Positions 5,531 to 59,030 are shown, numbered from the whole stretch's first letter. The stretch is 61,507 nt of DNA, filler included, from Stramenopiles sp. TOSAG23-3 (GCA_900128585.1; 22 parts of 22 records of this genome joined end to end with filler, not necessarily neighbours in it), one strand, 5' to 3'. A program made the numbers and translations. The notes: generated by a model not told the origin, from the sequence alone.

Positions 5531-5762
5531 NNNNNNNNNNNNNNNNNNNNNNNNNNNNNNNNNNNNNNNNNNNNTTAATTAATTAANNNNNNNNNNNNNN
5601 NNNNNNNNNNNNNNNNNNNNNNNNNNNNNNAATAAACGAAGAATTTAATGGTATTTTGGTTTGGTTGACCGATCAATTATTTTCGTTGTTTTGCTGCCGG
5701 TCGTTGCGATCTAACAATCTCTCTCTCTCTCTAAAACAAAAAAGTACAGCCCACGCGCTCGG

Positions 5763-10718: not shown

Positions 10719-11069
10719 AGATAGGGCGAGCACGGGAATTTCGTTTTGAAAGTGTTTGTACTCCTGGCAGTTGGAAGAAGGAAAGGGAGAAGGGATAAAA
10801 CCCTAATTACAACACCATTTAATAACCGCTCTCATTGCTTTTCTTCTACTTGGTATACCTCGTATGCTTAATATTCTATTACGGGTTTTATTTTATAGTA
10901 GGGCTTCTATTTATTTTAACTACTTGGTATAATACATGTATTAATACCGTATACTACTCGTATATTTATTATTATATAAATATGTTGAACTATTTTCTTC
11001 TTCTTCTTTCTTTCTGTCTTTCTTTCTTTCTTTCTTCTTCTTCAACATATATATAAAATATGTTGAACT

Positions 11070-11082
11070 ATTTTCTTCTTCT

Positions 11083-11150
<68 letters not shown>
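11070..11150. repeat. (TTTC)n microsatellite at the contig end
   Basis: Directly visible. Confidence 0.95.
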
Positions 11151-19673: not shown

Positions 19674-19745
<72 letters not shown>

Positions 19746-20867: not shown

Positions 20868-21200
20868 CTAGTACACGTGCACGATCCCATAGAACATCGT
20901 CCAGAAGAGCAAGTGCCCCATCAGCTGGCTCATGATGTTGTCGAACACAAAGGTCCAGGGCTTCTGCCCTGGAATGTACTGCGACGGGTCGCACTTCATC
21001 TTGACCAAAAGCGCCATGGACGTGATGGCGTAGAAACCTATAAACGCAAAGAAACCGTTGAACGCGGTTATTCCTAGTATCCCCGTCGCACACCCGCTCA
21101 CAACCCCCATCAGGGTCCTCACCCAGTCAACGGCCTGCGCGTTCGACATAATCCTTCCCTGGTCGTAGAACTCCATGGACTCGTTGTCATCGTTCCCCAT
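20868..21200 (-). CDS. EMC6: ER membrane protein complex subunit 6
   Basis: 110 aa with N..AVDWVRTLMGVVSGCATGILG...GF and the C-terminal LLFWTMFYGIVHVY signature. Confidence 0.9.
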   Translation of the reverse strand: MGNDDNESMEFYDQGRIMSNAQAVDWVRTLMGVVSGCATGILGITAFNGFFAFIGFYAITSMALLVKMKCDPSQYIPGQKPWTFVFDNIMSQLMGHLLFWTMFYGIVHVY

Positions 21201-21909
21201 GGTTCGATCGAGAGAGAGGTGGGGGGGGGAGAAAACAGCAGTACAAGAAAAAAACACACACAGGCGGGCAGAGAGAGAGACACACACAAGCAACGAAGAA
21301 TCCTACATTCTGTTCTGTTTGCAGAAACAATTGACAAAATGCCAATCGTTTCGCTTCGTGTGTATCACTTGAAATACATACATTTGGAGTTATTATTAAA
21401 TATGGAATAAGAAAATAATAATACGGATGGACGGAGGAGGAGGAAGAGGAAGACAAAGATCCCGAGATGAATAAATACTATCAAATACAAGTACCATATA
21501 TTATATTCTAAATTTATTATAACATTTTTCATTTTTTCTTCAATCAATAAAATATTTTATTCCAGTCTCTATCTCTAAAAAACTCTAAAAAACTCTAAAT
21601 CTATATTTTATTAATCGAAATTAAACTGGACCGGCTCGGCGGTCGGCGTTACACCGGATGGGTGTCTCGGGAGGTCGGTTTGTGTTTGTTTGGTCTTCCC
21701 TTCTTCTTCTGTCTTCTGGGCGTCCAAAACACAAGCCCAACCAACCCCAAACCCCCGTATGTTGAAGTACATAACAATAGCATTCAATTTTCATCATCAA
21801 ATTTTTAACACTCCATTCCCTATGCTATGTACCTTCTATGCAACAGGGGCAACGAAAAAAACAAAACAAAAGAAAACATGTCGATATTATATTTTTATAT
21901 GTGTATCTT

Positions 21910-29023: not shown

Positions 29024-29209
29024 AGTGAGATATTATAAAATTGAATTGGTTTGAAATGAACTAGATCTAAAACATCTAAAGCGTTCACTTTCTTCTTCTT
29101 CCTATGTTGACTTTGATCAATAAAAGCACCATGACCATGACTATACCTTGTCGTTTATTCTTTTATACAAATTTAACCCTGCGTGTTCTTCTTCAAATTA
29201 AAAAAAAAA

Positions 29210-29520
29210 AGTTTTTTCTTCTCTTTTTTTTTTTTTTTCCTTCTTTCTTCTTCTTCTTCTCTTTCTTCTTCTTTCTTCTTCTTTTCTTCTTTCTTCTTCT
29301 TTCTTCTTTCTTCTTCTTCTTCTTCTTCTTCTTCTTTTCTTCTTCTTCTTCTTCTTCTTTCTTCTTCTTTCTTCTTCTTTCTTCTTTCTTCTTCTTTCTT
29401 CTTTCTTCTTTCTTCTTCTTTCTTCTTCTTTCTTCTTGTTTCTTCTTCTTTCTTCTTCTTTCTTCTTCTTTCTTCTTCTTTCTTCTTTCTTCATTCTTCT
29501 TTCTTCTTTCTTCTTTCTTC
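29210..29520. repeat. Long (TTC/TTTC)n low-complexity tract
   Basis: Directly visible. Confidence 0.95.
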
Positions 29521-29907
29521 TGGAGGATGGAAGGGAGACTTTTTGAATCGTGAGTTCAACATTCAACAGTTTAAAGTACTAATATTTTTTAAGTACGATA
29601 TTTTCATATTAAAAATTAACTGTTTTTTTACAGCATAGACAGAGCACAGAGCACACACTTCTTTTCAACTATCTACAGGTACCAGGTACCAACGACGAAA
29701 GGCTCTTAGTGGACGAAGACAGAATAACAAAATTATGCATGTGCTCAACTAACAGTTGTTTTGATTATATGTGCAAGGAAACATGTTTCATTGGCAGTTG
29801 GAACAGCCTTTCTTTAATTTCATGTTCTGCTCCGCTCTTTAAGATTTTATGCTGTTGCAACGGAATTCCTAACATTTGTAACTCATTCGTTCGTAAGAGA
29901 AAGGAAT

Positions 29908-30633
29908 ATGTCCACTGCAACACCAGACGCCGTTTATAAAATCGTACTCATTGGTGATGCGGGTGTAGGAAAAACGAGTATTTTGCAACGTTTTGCCCAC
30001 GAAAAGAGAGGCATCACTGGTATACTAGATATCAAAGCGTGTAAGCCAACGATTGGCGTAGAATTTGAATCGTTTGATATAGAGCGATTGGTAAATGAAA
30101 AAAAGTATTTGATTCGGGTCCAGATTTGGGACACCGCCGGGCAAGAGCGGTACCGTGCCATAACCAAATCCCAGTACAGACGAGCAAACGGGGCCATGGT
30201 CGTTTTTGATGTCAGCAAGAAAGTTTCGTTTGAACACGCCAAGAAGGTATGGTTACCAGAGCTGGAAGATACTGCAACGGACACGACTGGGTTGTCGAAA
30301 GCGATTGCATTTGTTTGCAATAAGACAGACTTGAGAGTTGATGCAACAGACGATCACAAAAATTTTAATTTTGTGAATCCGGACCAAAAGAAAGCATTTA
30401 CGAATGAGAGAAACGATGAGGAGAAGATAGAAGTTTTTGACACTTCTGCATTAAATGGAGATGGACTCAAGACGGAAGACGGAAAAAAAAATGTTTTCCT
30501 ACACCTCATTGACAAAATTCACAAATTCCATTTGGAAAAGAGTGGCGTTTTAGAACATGCTAAATTGGGAAACGCAATCGATTTATCCGGCCAAAAATCT
30601 CAAAATGGTTCCTGTGGAGGATCCAAATGCTAA
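29908..30633 (+). CDS. Rab-family small GTPase (divergent, Rab11-like)
   Basis: GDAGVGKT, PTIGVEF, WDTAGQERYRAIT, NKTD, TSA motifs and C-terminal cysteines (SCGGSKC). Confidence 0.92.
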   Translation: MSTATPDAVYKIVLIGDAGVGKTSILQRFAHEKRGITGILDIKACKPTIGVEFESFDIERLVNEKKYLIRVQIWDTAGQERYRAITKSQYRRANGAMVVFDVSKKVSFEHAKKVWLPELEDTATDTTGLSKAIAFVCNKTDLRVDATDDHKNFNFVNPDQKKAFTNERNDEEKIEVFDTSALNGDGLKTEDGKKNVFLHLIDKIHKFHLEKSGVLEHAKLGNAIDLSGQKSQNGSCGGSKC

Positions 30634-35160: not shown

Positions 35161-36021
35161 TAGAACAGAAGAAGGGAGATGATTCATATATTTAAGATTA
35201 AAAGAGATTTTATGAAAATACTTAAATAACCAGCCAATTTTCTTGATTGAAAATAACAGAAAGAAAAACAATATGTAGTCGGTCTTCTATAACTAACAAA
35301 CAAGAATACAATATAGATATAGACAATAATAAACAAATGCTATTCAATGGAAACAAACCATGTATATTGTAAATAAGAATACAACATGTACTCTACAACT
35401 ACACTTTTCCTAATAATAAAATTATATAATAAAAAGAAGAGCTTCTTATATTTTTATTTTAGAGCCGTTTCTTCTTTCTTTCTTTCTTTCTTTTCTTCTT
35501 CTTCTTCTTCTTCTTCTTTTCTTCTTCTTTCTTTTCTTCTTAAAATATAATAAAAACAACTATAATAATTGAAGCTGGAGAAAATAATCCACAATTAATT
35601 AAGGATATTTATAATTATGCTATGTGTATGTAAACGAGGTATATTTTATATCACTTTTTAATTCTGTTTAGTTATAATTAATATTTCAAAATGATTTCAT
35701 CTAAATTCTTACATATAACATAGCTTTATCATAAAAACGGGTCTCGCATCATTATCCTTATACATATATATCCTTAATAAAGTGGACACTACGACATCTC
35801 ATCACATATATCTCAAAAAAACCCCCCACACTCCCACAAGAAAGGTTTATCTATATCTATGTGTGCTTGTTTCTTGTGAAAGAATATTGATGGAATTGGA
35901 AAAATGGGTGATTTAATTTATACATTATTTTGTATGTGAATTGAGAACTGCGGGTGCGTAGGAATATTAGTTTCTGTTTTGGGTTCATACACCGAATAGA
36001 GAGAGAGAGAGAGAGAGAGAC

Positions 36022-38583: not shown

Positions 38584-39176
38584 CTACATTTTGTTCGTCC
38601 TGGAGAAATTTTTACTTTTTTTCTTCTTCTCTTTGTACTTGTCATATGCTTCTTGGCACTGCTGGGCGTAATTGCTACTGCGCTTTTCTTGACCCACCGT
38701 CAACTTAAATACTTGAACTACGTCCTCATCCTGCAAAACGTGCTTAAGCCCACACCGCATCGGGCTATGCCTGCAGCTCGTCCCCCACACCAAGGCGTAC
38801 TTGAATTGTTTCTCCAGGTCTCTATGTATGGCCCGGCACAAATGCTCCACGGTAACCCCCCCGGTTCTTTCTTCACTAATGATCACGGGCTCCCAGCTGG
38901 GAGGCTCCCCTCGTTTCTTCGTGTACACTCGGACTAGCCCCATGCAGCCCCATATTCGCCTTAGGACGAAATCAAAGTTCAACCTCCACATCACAGAGGT
39001 CACGATGGTGTTCGGGCGGCGCGCAATTTCGTCCACTTGCTCAATGCTTATCATGTCAATTTTGTTGTACAAGTATAGGCAACGGACGTACTTTCTGTTC
39101 CCTTCAATGACATCGATCAGTTGGTCGCCCGTAATGTCCTGCCGGATGAGCAGGTCTGCGTTGTGAATTTTGTACT
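38584..39176 (-). CDS. DRG2: Developmentally regulated GTP-binding protein, C-terminal half with TGS domain
   Basis: YKIHNAD...DQLIDVIEGNRKY...YNKID...LVRVYTKKRG...FKYALVWGTS...CGLKHVLQDEDVVQ. Confidence 0.88.
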
Positions 39177-41971: not shown

Positions 41972-42218
41972 NNNNNNNNNNNNNNNNNNNNNNNNNNNNN
42001 NNNNNNNNNNNNNNNTTAATTAATTAANNNNNNNNNNNNNNNNNNNNNNNNNNNNNNNNNNNNNNNNNNNNATGATAAAAAATACTAAATCATTACACAC
42101 TCCGACACTACTCCCTCACTACTCCTCACTACTTCTACCTAATTATTATTTAATATTACGACCTCCTCGACGACCAACACTAATTAAAAAACATGCTTCT
42201 CGTCCAAATCAACTATTT

Positions 42219-43133
42219 CTACTGTAGCATAACGGCCTGCTCATATGCAAAAAACATTATGGCATGGGCTGGGGTTGCCCGAAAGCACGTGACCAACAAC
42301 CCACGGTAAAGCCCTCGGATCCCTTCCTTGGCAAAAATGCTAGACAAAACGTACCGGAATCCCTTGTCCTGGAGGTGGGGGTTCGTCTGGATCTGGGTCT
42401 TGACCGTGTCGGCCACGTACCCACTGGTCCAGTACGCAACCCCGGCAATGCCGCCGCCAGCCATGTGGACAAGGGGGCTCAGGTCTTCCTTCCCATTCCC
42501 AGTTGAGCGCGAAAAGGACTGACAGATCAACTCGTACGTTCCAAACCAGAAGAAACAACCCGGAACCTCCCTCAACAACGTGCAGCAGTTCCCTCGGTAC
42601 AAGCCCTTCGCAATTCCATCCTGCTTTATGGTCTTTGCGATGCAGTCCAACGGCCCCTTGTAAGTCCATGTCTCCTTCGGCATCCCCTGCTGCACCTGCA
42701 GGCGGCACTTGATAAGTTCTACAGGCGTCAGCACGAACGGGACCACCAACCCGCCAAAAGCCCCCGCTACGGCTGACGAAAGGAGGGGGGATTGGGACAC
42801 GTCAAATTCCGTTGCCAGCGCCTTTTTAAACCGGCCCACGGCGGCAAAAAGCACGGCCACCTCGAACGTGGAGCCTAGCAGTGGGCTCAGGAGCCCTTTG
42901 TACAAGCCCGGAACGCCGGCCGTTCGGTAAGTGTGCGAAACGCAGTGCCAGACACCGTTGTAGCGTATCGTGCCAGGCGGGGCTTTCCCATCTGGAAAAA
43001 CGTTCGCATTCTGAGCCTGAAGCAGAACTTTCACGGTATCGAAAGGGTGCTCGACCAACTTCCCTGCAAAACCGGCAACAGTGCCGGCAATAAACTCCGT
43101 TCGAACGGATGCCTCTTTTCTCGTATCGGACAT
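42219..43133 (-). CDS. Mitochondrial carrier, ornithine/carnitine (SLC25A15/A20/A29-like) subgroup
   Basis: HPFDTVKV, TPVELIKCRLQ, LLREVPG..FWFGTYE and YVADTVKTQIQ. Confidence 0.9.
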   Translation of the reverse strand: MSDTRKEASVRTEFIAGTVAGFAGKLVEHPFDTVKVLLQAQNANVFPDGKAPPGTIRYNGVWHCVSHTYRTAGVPGLYKGLLSPLLGSTFEVAVLFAAVGRFKKALATEFDVSQSPLLSSAVAGAFGGLVVPFVLTPVELIKCRLQVQQGMPKETWTYKGPLDCIAKTIKQDGIAKGLYRGNCCTLLREVPGCFFWFGTYELICQSFSRSTGNGKEDLSPLVHMAGGGIAGVAYWTSGYVADTVKTQIQTNPHLQDKGFRYVLSSIFAKEGIRGLYRGLLVTCFRATPAHAIMFFAYEQAVMLQ

Positions 43134-43953
43134 TTGCTTCTCGGCCCACGCACGGCAGCAGACGAGACTCAAGCTGGGAAAAACGGTCTCGTTCTAAAGG
43201 AAATTCTCAGTCTGCTCGCCTGAAAAAAGAACCATTTAAACGTTTGGCGACAAGGGAGCATCGATATTTGAAAGTATTAGTAAGCTTCACACATTTAGCC
43301 GGATAAATTGCACTGTTATTTTTTCTTCTTCTGTGTTCGTACATATCTTGTTGTTGTTGTTTTAATACCAAGAAGGTATACGGTATGGTATAATATAATT
43401 AATTAATCTCTATAATAATACCACCAAGGTAATACCGTATATAATAATAATTATTATTTTTTTTGTTGAAAATAATAATAATAATTATGTAATAAATAAA
43501 TAGACTACACCACAACAACAACAAAAGAACAACAACAAGTGAAGAAAAAAAAGACGACAATATTATTATATTATAATTGAAGAATTTTATATAAAAAAAA
43601 AGATACTAACTAATTTAGATAATACTACAATAAAAAAATAAATAATATACAGCTCCGAATATGGAGTATACGTGAAAATCAATATAAGTACAGAACAGAG
43701 TCAAATAGACAAGATAGAGGGAACTACCTATCTAAAATACATTACACTACGATTAAATTAACGGTAGGGTGCATTTTATTACCTATCTACGTGTATTACA
43801 CTACTAATTAAAAGAAGGTGATATCTGATAATTACAACCTTAAAATACATAGCATTGTAAAAAGAAAAAGAGATATTTTGAAGAAGGGATATACACCTAG
43901 CAGGGCAAAAAAAAAATATTGAATGTATGACAACAAAATAAAGATTATACAAC

Positions 43954-43959
43954 AAAAAA
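43954..43959 (-). terminator. Pol III terminator (T6) of the tRNA-Gly gene
   Basis: After the discriminator A the minus strand reads AACAATAAAAA-TTTTTT. Confidence 0.7.
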
Positions 43960-43970
43960 TTTTTATTGTT

Positions 43971-44110
43971 TGCACTGTCCGGCTGTAATGATTTGATTGT
44001 TTATTGTTAGATTCTGTCTTCTTTCTTTTCTTTTTAAGGAATTGTACGTACGAATTGAACCCGGGGTGGGACGATGGCAACGTCCCATGTTACCACTACA
44101 CCAACAGTGC
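43971..44110 (-). tRNA. tRNA-Gly-GCC: tRNA-Gly(GCC) in two exons (44110-44052 and 43982-43971) separated by a 69-nt intron
   Basis: The joined sequence GCACTGT TG GTGT AGTGGTA ACAT G GGACG TTGCCAT CGTCC CACC CCGGG TTCAATT C|CCGG ACAGTGC A is a 71-nt cloverleaf with all four stems paired and anticodon GCC. Confidence 0.93.
43983..44051 (-). other. Spliceosomal-type (GT-AG) intron inside the tRNA T-arm
   Basis: 5' GTACGT, branch motif CTAAC at 44010-44006 and 3' CATTACAG. Exact removal restores the T-stem and acceptor stem. Confidence 0.82.
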
Positions 44111-44866
44111 GGTGAAACAGGGACGGCACTTCAAACCTTGCGGTTTGCGAGGTGCCATGTTTCTTGTATAAGTAATGAAATTTTAAGTATATATATAAAT
44201 AAATACTGTATATTAATTATGGAAAATTTGTTTTGCAACTAACCAGATTCCAGGAGGGGGTACAGCCACACATTTCTATTTTAAAATCTCTCTATCATCT
44301 CGACCCGACCGTTTTAGTGATTTAGCTTTTATAAAAAAGGGGTTGGTGGGGTAGTTAGTTGTTTATGTGGAAAATAATAAGAAAAAAAGGTTCAATAGTA
44401 TATAGTCTATATAGTCTAACTTAAAATAATAGATGGCCAATATTGAATGATATAAATATATAAAAGTCGTCCTTGAGAAGACCTGAGAACCAACGATCGA
44501 AATGGGATTAAGCAAGGAATACAACAAAAGCTTTTGAAACAAAAACAGAAAGTTGGCCTGGCCTGCCTGCTGCCTTTCTTCTTCCTGCACTCTTCATTTA
44601 TTTTTTACCAAATTACCACTATTGCACAGCATCAAATATCCAACAACATTGTTATTTTAATACTATATAATAAATAATTGAAATAATAATAATAATTAAA
44701 ATAAAAAAATAAATAATAATATAATAATAATAAAAAATTGTGTACCCCGTTTTTTATGGATGATCANNNNNNNNNNNNNNNNNNNNNNNNNNNNNNNNNN
44801 NNNNNNNNNNTTAATTAATTAANNNNNNNNNNNNNNNNNNNNNNNNNNNNNNNNNNNNNNNNNNNN

Positions 44867-46446
44867 GGAAATAGAAGCCAAATTTCAAGCAGAAACTGCA
44901 CCGCAGCAATCTGGACGTCGAGGGCTTGATTGGAGTACGACAGGTCCAGGGCAAACGTCGACATTTTCTTCAGCAAGCCGTTCTGCACCAGGCAGCGCTT
45001 GCCGTCACTATCCTTGGCCACCACCTTGAGAAATTGGTGCAAGAATGCTAGCTGCGACACGGCCGGCACATCCTGATCTTGGATTTTGCGAAAATGCACT
45101 TGCAGCAGCTCCTGAAAGTGTTCTGCAGAAAACAGTCGGATCATTTCCGTTATTTCTTTGTTCAAGGTTTGGTGATCGTGCACTGCCTGCAGCGCACAGA
45201 TCAACCCGCTATGCGTTTGGCTGCTGAACCACGTCCATGCTATATGCAGCACTCGCTCCAAGGGGGTCCGGGCATTCTCCCGAGCTGCCTCTTGCCGCTG
45301 CCTTGCCGTAGGTTTCTTTCCGCCCTTCTTGCTCGAATTCTGCTTTGCTCTCTGCTTGCTTAAGATCTCGCTCTTTCCCTTTCGAGGGTTAAAGCTTTTG
45401 GAGGACGGCACCATCCCCGTCTTCTTGCGATCACCAATCTTCGTCCGAATATCGGCCAAGAGAAGGGTGACCAGTTTCGTAGCTCGGCGTACCACACTCG
45501 GGTTTGACGTCAAAAAGCATGGGCGCAACACATTCATGAACACATACATGTCGTCCGGGCGTTTGGTGACAAGGGCGACTATCCGCTCGATGGATATTGG
45601 CATGGTAAGACCGTGCAACCACCGCTTGATGGCTTTGTACGGCCCGTCCGTGCACAGCCCCACCAGTCGCGGGGCATGCACGGTAAGCATGAGGGCGGCC
45701 CCTCTGGGGTTGACTTTAAACGCCTTGCACAGCGACGTAACGAGGAATTCTACTATTGTTTTCGACCCACCAGTGCTTTCTACAGAAGGGGCATCGGACG
45801 ATGCGATGGAACTGGCCTCTCTTTCGTGCGAGGAGTTCGGCGGGAGCAGGGGCAATACTTTCGCTAACCGCTGGGCGCGCTGGGCACCGCTGAGGGTCGA
45901 TTGAATGCTCCGCTCCTCCTCCGTGCCGTTTGCTGTTTTCCTGGCCGGTGCGACGGGGGAGGCAGGGCCTCCCGATGCTTCGCTCCCGTCGCTGCGGCCG
46001 GTAGGGAGCAAGGTCTCCTTCTTCCCCCCGTGTTGAAAGTTGTGGACTTGGTTCTTAATGTTCCTGAGCACTGAGACGAGGGCTTTCGGGTCTCCGGCGA
46101 CGATTCTGGCCTTCGTCGTGTCCAACATGGGTACACCGTGCGTTTCAAGAATCGGGCCCAGCACGTTCCAATTGTACAACATGGACGTAGCCGTCGACGC
46201 CTTTCGCAGCGTGTTCACGACGGCAGCGGACTGCCGGCCTACCATCCCGTACTTGGGGTTTGCCTCCAACCCACGCAGGAGGAGCGCGACCGCGTACCCG
46301 TTTTGGAACTTTACCCAAGTGCTTCCTTTCACGGTCAAAAGTTTCTTCTCATACCCTGGCGCGGGGTAGACTTCCGGCGCGCGCCGGGGGAGGACTTTTT
46401 CCTTCTGCAGCCATTTGGCAAGGGGCAGGGGAATGGTGGAAGACAT
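44867..46446 (-). CDS. Protein with an N-terminal SPEF1/SPEF2-type calponin-homology domain and helical repeats (3'-truncated)
   Basis: FQNGYAVALLL...LYNWNVLGPILETHGV...KARIVAGD resembles the CH_2 domain. Confidence 0.65.
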
Positions 46447-47711
46447 GGTCTGTGCTCGCGTTGGAAAAGGGAAACAAAACTTAAATACCCCTTACAAACA
46501 AGTTTATATATGTACACGTCAACTTGCGACGGACGCCAGGCTCGCACTGGAAACGATTCCGTTCTCTCCTTTATAGTATGTTTTATATACAATAATCAGG
46601 AAGAAAAGAAAATTCTTTCACAGTTTATCATTGATGTTGTTGTTCTTGTTGATGGGTTTCGATTCATTTCTTCTACATTTTAAAAATGTGCAGTGAATGT
46701 ATTGTGAAGAACGAACTAGTAACGATTATTTAGTTGTTCCAATTATCTACGTAACAATAGCTAAATGTAAAAAATAATAATTAATAATAATAAAAAATGT
46801 GTTATTAAAGATCATCATCATGATCATTCTTTTTTACGCTGTACACAGTATGTGTTAAAAATATTATTCTCTTCCTTTCTTCTTCTTTCTTCTTCTTCTT
46901 CTTCTTCTTTCTTCTTCTTTCTTCTTCTTCTTTCTTCTTCTTCTTTCTTCTTCTTTTATATTTCTTCTTCTTTTAATTATTTATTATATATAGGAATATC
47001 AAGTCAGTGGTGTTGAGTAATTATTAAGATTATTTATCAAATCTATTTATATACTTTTTTTTTAATTAAAATATAATTCTTCTTTCTTTCTCTTTCTTCT
47101 TCATTTCATCGATCAGAGATCAGAGATCGGCAACGGACAATTCATTTATAATTAAAAAAAAGAGAAAAAAAAAGAGAAAGAGAAAAATAATAAAAAATAG
47201 GTTTAATATTGCTCATCCTTGATCCCTTATACTGTGTCCTGTATAACTATTCTAACTACCTACAATACCATTACGGTTCGATTGTACATCAAGTGAGTGA
47301 CCCTTTTCGCATTTCTTCTTATTTTTTGTTCTTTACTTAAAAACATAATTATTTTTTATTTTTTAATGATAGTCCTAATACAGTATAATAATAGAGTTAT
47401 CATTCTTGATACTTGAAACTATTATAAATAATTAAGGTGATATATTATATATTTATAATTTCCAAAAGGGTTAATCAATTTGTCCCTTGCTATTTGTATG
47501 TATTAAATGTTCTGGTTTAGTTCGTGGCTAGAATTGATTGAGGAAGAAAAAGAATGTGAANNNNNNNNNNNNNNNNNNNNNNNNNNNNNNNNNNNNNNNN
47601 NNNNTTAATTAATTAANNNNNNNNNNNNNNNNNNNNNNNNNNNNNNNNNNNNNNNNNNNNTATTTATTATTTCTACTTTTCGTAAGTTTTGAAGAAGAAA
47701 CAAGTAAAGGT

Positions 47712-58607: not shown

Positions 58608-59030
58608 TGTATATGATGTTGAACAGGGACGTGGCACAAACAGTGCAGAAACAGATAGCATAGCACTGCCAGAGGTTCAAAGTAGCGAAATATACCGTTG
58701 GAACCCTGCGAGATCCAACGGTNNNNNNNNNNNNNNNNNNNNNNNNNNNNNNNNNNNNNNNNNNNNTTAATTAATTAANNNNNNNNNNNNNNNNNNNNNN
58801 NNNNNNNNNNNNNNNNNNNNNNGGGAGGTGGCAAAGAAAGAGGAAGAAGATATGATGGCTGCGTTTGACGAAGAGAGCGATGACGACGACGGTGGTGGTT
58901 GACGGTGGTGGTCGGGGCTGATGAATGTCTTTTTTATGAAATTTGCTAAAAGAGTTGACCGAATTTTAACTGTAAACAATATACATTAAGCTTTAACACG
59001 AAAAGTCTATTCATTTACTGTTCTTCTTTT

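Follow-up and report, generated by a model that had tools for sequence, protein, structure and literature searches.

A putative spliceosomal-type intron in the T arm of a tRNA-Gly(GCC) gene from a marine stramenopile-like protist

A tRNA gene split between positions 61 and 62

We analyzed a 61,507-nucleotide (nt) stretch of DNA from the assembly of the uncultured marine protist Stramenopiles sp. TOSAG23-3 (GCA_900128585.1), hereafter called the window, which contains a tRNA-Gly(GCC) gene whose T arm is interrupted by a 69-nt insert. The insert starts with GT, ends with AG and carries a branch-site-like motif in between, and by sequence it is very probably an mRNA-type intron lying inside a tRNA gene. 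The window consists of 22 segments that follow one another in strictly descending length, from 2,718 down to 2,685 nt, and are joined by 21 identical spacers of 100 nt (44 N, TTAATTAATTAA and another 44 N; at 2719-2818, 5531-5630 and so on to 58723-58822), leaving ~59 kb of real sequence. Features on either side of a spacer are therefore not true neighbours, and open reading frames (ORFs) that end in runs of X are cut by contig ends. The features of the split gene were read directly from the sequence, with the two exons also recovered by ARAGORN after joining, and are as follows:

44110-44052, minus strand: tRNA-Gly(GCC) exon 1, 59 nt, tRNA positions 1-61, comprising the 5' strand of the acceptor stem, the D arm, the anticodon arm, a 4-nt variable region, the 5' strand of the T stem, the T loop and C61
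44051-43983, minus strand: insert, 69 nt, interrupting the 3' strand of the T stem between tRNA positions 61 and 62
44051-44046, minus strand: 5' splice-site-like GTACGT, which fits the extended consensus GTRNGT
44044-44038, minus strand: CAATTCC repeat, insert positions 8-14, 7 nt after the 5' cut
44010-44006, minus strand: branch-site-like CTAAC, insert positions 42-46, which fits CTRAY and a placement about 10-50 nt before the 3' end
44007, minus strand: predicted branch A, 24 nt from the 3' end of the insert
43985-43983, minus strand: 3' splice-site-like CAG, which fits YAG
43982-43971, minus strand: tRNA exon 2, 12 nt, tRNA positions 62-73, comprising the 3' strand of the T stem (CCGG), the 3' strand of the acceptor stem and the discriminator base A

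When the two exons were joined by a script, ARAGORN called a tRNA-Gly(gcc) of 71 bases in which every stem is paired, with one G-U pair in the D stem. The invariant bases readable in the joined cloverleaf are U8, A14, G18G19, U33, G53 T54 T55 C56, A58 and C61. Moving both cuts by one base in either direction breaks the T stem on direct reading, and the boundary is thus unique. Since a shift of a single base already fails, there is no target-site duplication at the insert. The G+C content is 57.7% in the exons, 28% in the insert and 39.6% in the surrounding contig. Across the 71 nt of exon sequence and all three splice signals, which stand beside this low-G+C insert, we found no decay at all, indicating either selection or a recent event.

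In its unspliced form, the gene was missed by standard tools. ARAGORN called no tRNA in the unspliced 301-nt locus, with or without its option for introns in the anticodon loop, and none across the whole window. Searching the whole window with Rfam at the gathering thresholds gave no match, and raising the limit to an E value of 5 gave three weak matches, none of them to a tRNA. When only the 301 bases were searched, the Rfam tRNA model reached a sub-threshold 14.8 bits (E 2.2), the gathering score being 29, and this match covers 44110-44043, corresponding to exon 1 and nine bases of the insert. The initial annotation of the locus had given the same coordinates, with the break between positions 61 and 62, and had described a fully paired 71-nt cloverleaf after removal at GT/AG in a gene that standard finders would miss or truncate. 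Direct reading and script extraction reproduced the anatomy, the ARAGORN call on the joined sequence confirmed the cloverleaf, and the failure of ARAGORN and Rfam on the unspliced locus agrees with the last point.

Splice signals, the endonuclease test and known introns

The insert conforms to the U2-type pattern in its GTRNGT start, its CTRAY branch motif and its YAG end. We examined how often such a combination occurs in the window on both strands. A GT start with an AG end was found in 349 of 115,278 69-mers, but GTRNGT together with CTAAC placed 8-45 nt from the end and a final YAG was found in only one of the 115,278, which is the insert itself. As a deletion control, each GT..AG segment of 30-151 nt was cut out on both strands (n = 37,900), and ARAGORN was run after each cut. 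tRNA calls that crossed the new junction arose from 4 of the 37,900 deletions, three of which lie at the tRNA locus and represent the exact cut and two near variants. The fourth, a 97-nt tRNA-Gly(ccc) at 18431-18340, was taken as spurious. Two more calls at the tRNA locus came from plus-strand deletions and were excluded from the junction-crossing count. The GTACGT donor, the CTAAC with its A located 24 nt from the end and the CAG acceptor had all been named in the initial annotation, and the 69-mer and deletion controls make their joint occurrence by chance improbable.

The CAATTCC inside the insert is a direct repeat of the spliced junction, formed by the last six bases of exon 1 and the first base of exon 2, and may be the scar of an insertion event. 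No second copy of the insert was found in the ~59 kb of real sequence in the window, where the best other match was 21 nt of purine-rich, low-complexity DNA.

We also asked whether the insert could be recognized by the tRNA splicing endonuclease. The canonical bulge-helix-bulge (BHB) consists of two 3-nt bulges that hold the cuts, a 4-bp central helix and flanking helices. At this geometry, no BHB is present at the insert: the central helix (CAAT vs TTAC), the outer helix and the inner helix each form one of four possible pairs. The initial annotation had noted that CAAT and TTAC do not pair, and the same poor pairing was thus found in all three helices. Allowing bulges of 0-4 nt raised the central helix to at best three of four pairs, all A-U. 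In the predicted fold of the precursor (-37.9 kcal/mol), the acceptor helix instead continues into the 3' end of the insert, and neither cut lies in a bulge. The insert is located at 61/62 and not at the canonical 37/38. The eukaryotic ruler mechanism requires a folded mature tRNA domain, with the canonical intron position at 37/38. The position in the T arm excludes this mechanism, since the ruler needs the folded mature domain (PMC4090602, in the part available).

Our literature search found no spliceosomal intron in a tRNA gene, supplementary tRNA tables of protist genome papers being outside its reach. Within the literature searched, the statement of the initial annotation that no such intron is known therefore stands, and the hosts given in the available part of a review on U6 are U1, U2, U5, U6 and rRNA. 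According to the same portion of this review, spliceosomal introns occur in the U6, U2, U5 and U1 small nuclear RNA (snRNA) genes and in ribosomal DNA (rDNA), the named hosts being U6 of Schizosaccharomyces pombe and other fungi, U1, U2 and U5 of Rhodotorula hasegawae, and ascomycete rDNA, and the determinants of intron insertion into non-coding RNAs are described as unclear (PMC5855946). The word stem "spliceosom" is absent from PMC4090602 and from PMC13578239, a 2026 review of tRNA gene repertoires, while in the available part of PMC3978253 "spliceosomal" occurs once, for protein-coding genes only.

The insert shares with the snRNA and rDNA introns the combination of a GT-AG intron and a branch motif in a structural-RNA gene. 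With the U6 introns it further shares a host gene of the type transcribed by RNA polymerase III (Pol III), an insertion point within a conserved RNA region that lacks a proto-splice site, and reverse splicing as the favoured origin (PMC5855946, in part). It differs from the snRNA and rDNA introns in its host, a tRNA, which is absent from the list in the available part of that review. Since tRNAs do not belong to the spliceosome, nearness to its active site is no explanation for how this insertion arose. In 1990, Kohrer, Vogel and Domdey reportedly described in the EMBO J an engineered yeast tRNA gene carrying an actin intron that was spliced by the pre-mRNA pathway. That construct is said to have been artificial, with the intron replacing the natural one in the anticodon loop, and would show that such splicing is feasible.

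Introners are recently gained spliceosomal introns that derive from transposons and are known from marine algae and further aquatic protists; they bring their own splice signals with them and may insert at any site. Unlike introners, the insert has no target-site duplication on direct reading and no second copy within the window, and its start appears by eye to be dissimilar to the reverse complement of its end. A location outside 37/38, including the T arm, is also known from tRNA introns of Cyanidioschyzon merolae and of cryptophyte and chlorarachniophyte nucleomorphs, which standard finders likewise miss (PMC3728597 and PMC4090602, both in part). However, the introns of C. merolae have a BHB that is cut by the tRNA splicing endonuclease (PMC3728597, in part), whereas the insert has no BHB and carries GT, CTAAC and AG. 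The nucleomorph introns described are short, at 3-24 nt (PMC4090602, in part), in contrast to the 69 nt found here.

Proposed maturation, origin and alternative explanations

Three further elements bear on how the split gene could be transcribed, and all were read directly from the sequence:

44103-44093, minus strand: A-box-like element TGGTGTAGTGG, tRNA positions 8-19, intact
44061-44052, minus strand: B-box-like element GGTTCAATTC, tRNA positions 52-61
43959-43954, minus strand: run of six T (T6), Pol III terminator-like, 11 nt past the discriminator base

We take the first two to be the A and B boxes by comparison with the Pol III consensus. The B box keeps 10 of its 11 bases, while the 11th (C62) is displaced by the insert and a G stands in its place. 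The insert has a composition of A37 T13 C11 G8, and its longest run of T is two. Among the 27,338 low-G+C 69-mers of the window, 14.1% lack TTT and 5.6% contain 13 T or fewer. A T-poor insert followed by T6 after exon 2 weakly fits the requirement for Pol III to read through the insert.

From this arrangement, we infer how the gene would be transcribed and by which polymerase, how its precursor would be spliced, in what order the steps would follow and where the intron came from. The gene would be a nuclear, cytosolic-type tRNA-Gly(GCC) carrying a U2-type GT-AG intron between positions 61 and 62. The internal promoter would drive transcription through the T-poor intron to T6, most likely by Pol III. 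The resulting precursor would be unable to form a T arm or a BHB and hence would not be a substrate of the tRNA splicing endonuclease. The spliceosome would recognize GTACGT and branch at the A of CTAAC (44007), joining C61 to C62 and releasing a 69-nt lariat. The T arm and the acceptor stem would form only after splicing, allowing processing by RNase P and RNase Z and the addition of CCA. We consider it close to an even prospect that the locus is transcribed through the insert, that the spliceosome excises the insert as a lariat branched at 44007, and that normal end processing follows. The wider proposal, in which maturation of a nuclear tRNA-Gly in a marine stramenopile-like protist passes through the spliceosome, which splices a Pol III pre-tRNA that lacks its T arm before RNase P and RNase Z act, is plausible but put forward tentatively. 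The more general idea of the initial annotation, that the organism may mature its tRNAs by way of the spliceosome, goes further than one locus on a 2.7-kb contig can support.

As for the origin, an excised intron would probably have been reverse-spliced into the tRNA transcript, followed by reverse transcription and recombination, as has been proposed for the introns of U6. The precise entry, the absence of a target duplication and the non-coding host argue for reverse splicing into an abundant RNA rather than for insertion of a transposon. Reverse splicing by the intron-lariat spliceosome has been discussed as a possible route of intron transposition (PMC11146597, in part).

Several observations weigh against a functional intron. 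There is no polypyrimidine tract in the insert: the 21 bases that separate the branch motif from CAG include 9 pyrimidines, with no run longer than two. Such a tract is not required in every lineage. The exon flanks, TTC/GT and AG/CC, are unlike a proto-splice site, and TTTT is absent from 38.6% of the 27,338 low-G+C 69-mers, which makes the argument from T-poverty a weak one. Frame-joining scans of the window yielded 105 and 114 candidate introns, none of which was certifiable as spliceosomal, and consequently there is no host intron consensus to set beside the insert. The tRNA is a single locus on a 2,695-nt segment (42072-44766) of a fragmented assembly, and intronless copies of tRNA-Gly(GCC) may exist elsewhere in the genome. 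Splicing of the S. pombe U6 intron is established, whereas that of the intron in tRNA-Gly, like expression of the locus, is predicted from the sequence. In addition, according to the available part of PMC4090602, insertions into the D or T arms of eukaryotic tRNA genes mostly affect a single copy among many synonymous ones and are assumed to be pseudogenes.

This last point, together with the lack of a polypyrimidine tract and of proto-splice-site flanks, would fit a disabled copy. In that case, a spliceosomal-type intron or intron-derived DNA would recently have inserted into one tRNA-Gly(GCC) gene among several, and the copy would be silent or never spliced, with other copies supplying the tRNA and too little time elapsed for decay. 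A selection effect also works in its favour, because the locus was picked from a very large scan in which a rare accident can surface. However, the 71 nt of exon and the three signals show zero decay despite a contig G+C of 39.6%, the insert is T-poor and without any Pol III stop, and the window offers no source copy of it. A disabled copy is the main alternative and a serious one, which we regard as possible but somewhat doubtful. Whether the copy is functional or disabled, a spliceosomal intron would have entered the tRNA gene precisely, and reverse splicing followed by copying into DNA appears to be the best explanation for this.

The remaining alternatives dispense with the spliceosome or with the intron itself. 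Excision by protein enzymes, acting on a relaxed substrate of the tRNA splicing endonuclease or involving another endonuclease and a ligase, would make the GT-AG appearance incidental. Non-canonical T-arm tRNA introns do exist in nucleomorphs and in C. merolae, and some nucleomorph tRNA introns are cut by unknown rules (PMC4090602 and PMC3728597, both in part). Nevertheless, the pairing of one in four in each BHB helix, a relaxed central helix with at best three A-U pairs of four, the position of both cuts outside the bulges of the predicted precursor fold and a full set of splice signals that is very improbable by chance leave this explanation very unlikely. A mis-assembly or amplification chimera could have placed 69 foreign bases in a normal tRNA gene, and in this respect the assembly is indeed highly fragmented (22 spacer-joined pieces of 2,685-2,718 nt) and an independent DNA run, X2, gave no piece across either junction. 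A chimera would hardly be expected, however, to fall exactly at GT/AG with a well-placed branch motif between tRNA halves that are ordered, oriented and 69 nt apart, and several marine metagenomes from different studies contain at least half of the words sampled across the surrounding 2.66 kb, counted over that interval as a whole; an artefact is thus improbable. Finally, unrelated filler DNA, for example from break repair, might resemble an intron by chance. The middle of the insert does resemble the purine-rich, GAAA-type low-complexity DNA between genes in the window, and the 7-nt junction repeat inside the insert could be a repair scar, but the full signal set recurs in no other 69-mer, even GT...AG is confined to 349 of the 115,278, and a chance look-alike is hardly credible.

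If the intron in tRNA-Gly is functional, it would cross a textbook divide, in which tRNA introns are removed by protein enzymes and spliceosomal introns belong to mRNA splicing. The case would extend a known class, spliceosomal introns in non-coding RNA genes, to a tRNA host, and thereby from U1, U2, U5, U6 and rRNA to an RNA unlinked to the spliceosome. It would also add natural spliceosome substrates among Pol III transcripts beyond U6 and would be the first case of a tRNA gene naturally carrying a spliceosomal intron. A dead copy would still be a clean footprint of intron gain. Such genes are invisible to ARAGORN and Rfam, and the "missing" tRNAs of protist assemblies may partly be of this kind.

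Sequencing runs and genomic context

To place the locus in public data, we considered 24 listed sequencing runs, six of which are RNA. Based on sampled words, 20 of them contain part of 42100-44760 and nine contain half or more. Marine metagenomes of several studies contain the surrounding 2.66 kb, several of them with at least half of the sampled words. One DNA run (X2) and three RNA runs (X15-X17) were aligned to 43400-44760. The three RNA runs placed nothing on this interval and are uninformative on expression. X2 yielded 18 short contigs, mostly on a repeat at ~43692-43810. Its depth was 0 over 43952-43997 and 44090-44760, 0.21 over 43998-44043 and 2.3 over 44044-44089, and no piece bridged either splice site by 31 letters, which speaks neither for nor against contiguity. 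One X2 contig joined 43922 to 44042, skipping 119 nt (side 24, likeness threshold 92); it was attributed to another organism or to low-complexity DNA and was not used. Exact searches with a 25-nt stretch of exon 1 gave no match in metagenome, genome and viral contig collections, and a 30-nt stretch of exon 1 gave none in metagenome contigs.

The repeat at ~43692-43810 is a stretch of ~100 nt located ~170 nt downstream of the tRNA. The summed depth of X2 there was 57-73, compared with 0-5 nearby, and the contigs were many, short and slightly different from one another, with loose ends on both sides, which suggests a short dispersed repeat.

On the same segment and strand, a single-exon mitochondrial-carrier gene occupies 42219-43133, with the tRNA 837 nt upstream of it. 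Its named relatives are ~40-53% identical and mostly from diatoms, and a 79% identical carrier protein is found on a 27-kb contig (P0002). A DRG-family GTPase, of which the C-terminal 196 residues are present (38587-39174, minus strand), stops at a spacer because the gene runs off the end of its contig. These residues are 100% identical to the last 196 of a 412-aa protein known from other public data (P0121), whose first 216 residues were not found anywhere in the window. Named relatives of this GTPase with ~51-58% identity come from Blastocystis, Nannochloropsis, oomycetes, Cafeteria and Triparma, and a further DRG protein is 79% identical (P0122). By the named relatives of the carrier and of the GTPase, the organism belongs among the stramenopiles, where it has no close named relative. 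The GTPase gene was considered as a source of a genuine intron and rejected, as it is merely cut by the contig end. An ORF at 44815-46446 was likewise dropped as an upstream host transcript of the tRNA, since it lies on a different contig.

The protein genes we inspected are all single uninterrupted ORFs (two mitochondrial carriers, a Rab GTPase at 29818-30633 and an EMC6-like gene at 20868-21302), and the genome looks very intron-poor in the sample given by the window. An apparent intron at 29550 was rejected as a low-complexity spacer before the single-exon Rab gene. Long purine-rich GAA/GAAA microsatellites lie between genes at 29180-29550, 19680-19745, 11000-11150, 35470-35545 and 46880-46950, and the middle of the insert is similar to them.

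Two other readings of the tRNA region were set aside. Removing the insert leaves 122 codons open (55 + 67) in a frame at 43782-44216 (minus strand), which was rejected as chance; this frame has no ATG upstream, and its content is low-complexity, AT-rich and T-rich. Repeat families D7 and D11 at ~44520-44620 were considered as a possible second, decayed form of the locus; their local alignment score was 26, compared with a mean of 20.3 and a maximum of 35 in shuffled sequences, and this reading was also discarded.

Immediately upstream of the tRNA lies one more structured element:

44163-44114, minus strand: G+C-rich hairpin of 50 nt with a GCAA loop, ending 3 nt before tRNA position 1

Its predicted stability is -21.5 kcal/mol (z -4.46), and none of 200 shuffled sequences was as stable. 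The hairpin has no match in Rfam. On this folding prediction, it could possibly be a structured 5' leader, a separate small RNA or a small RNA freed by RNase P. A TA-repeat, TATATATATA, lies ~25 nt further upstream of the hairpin.
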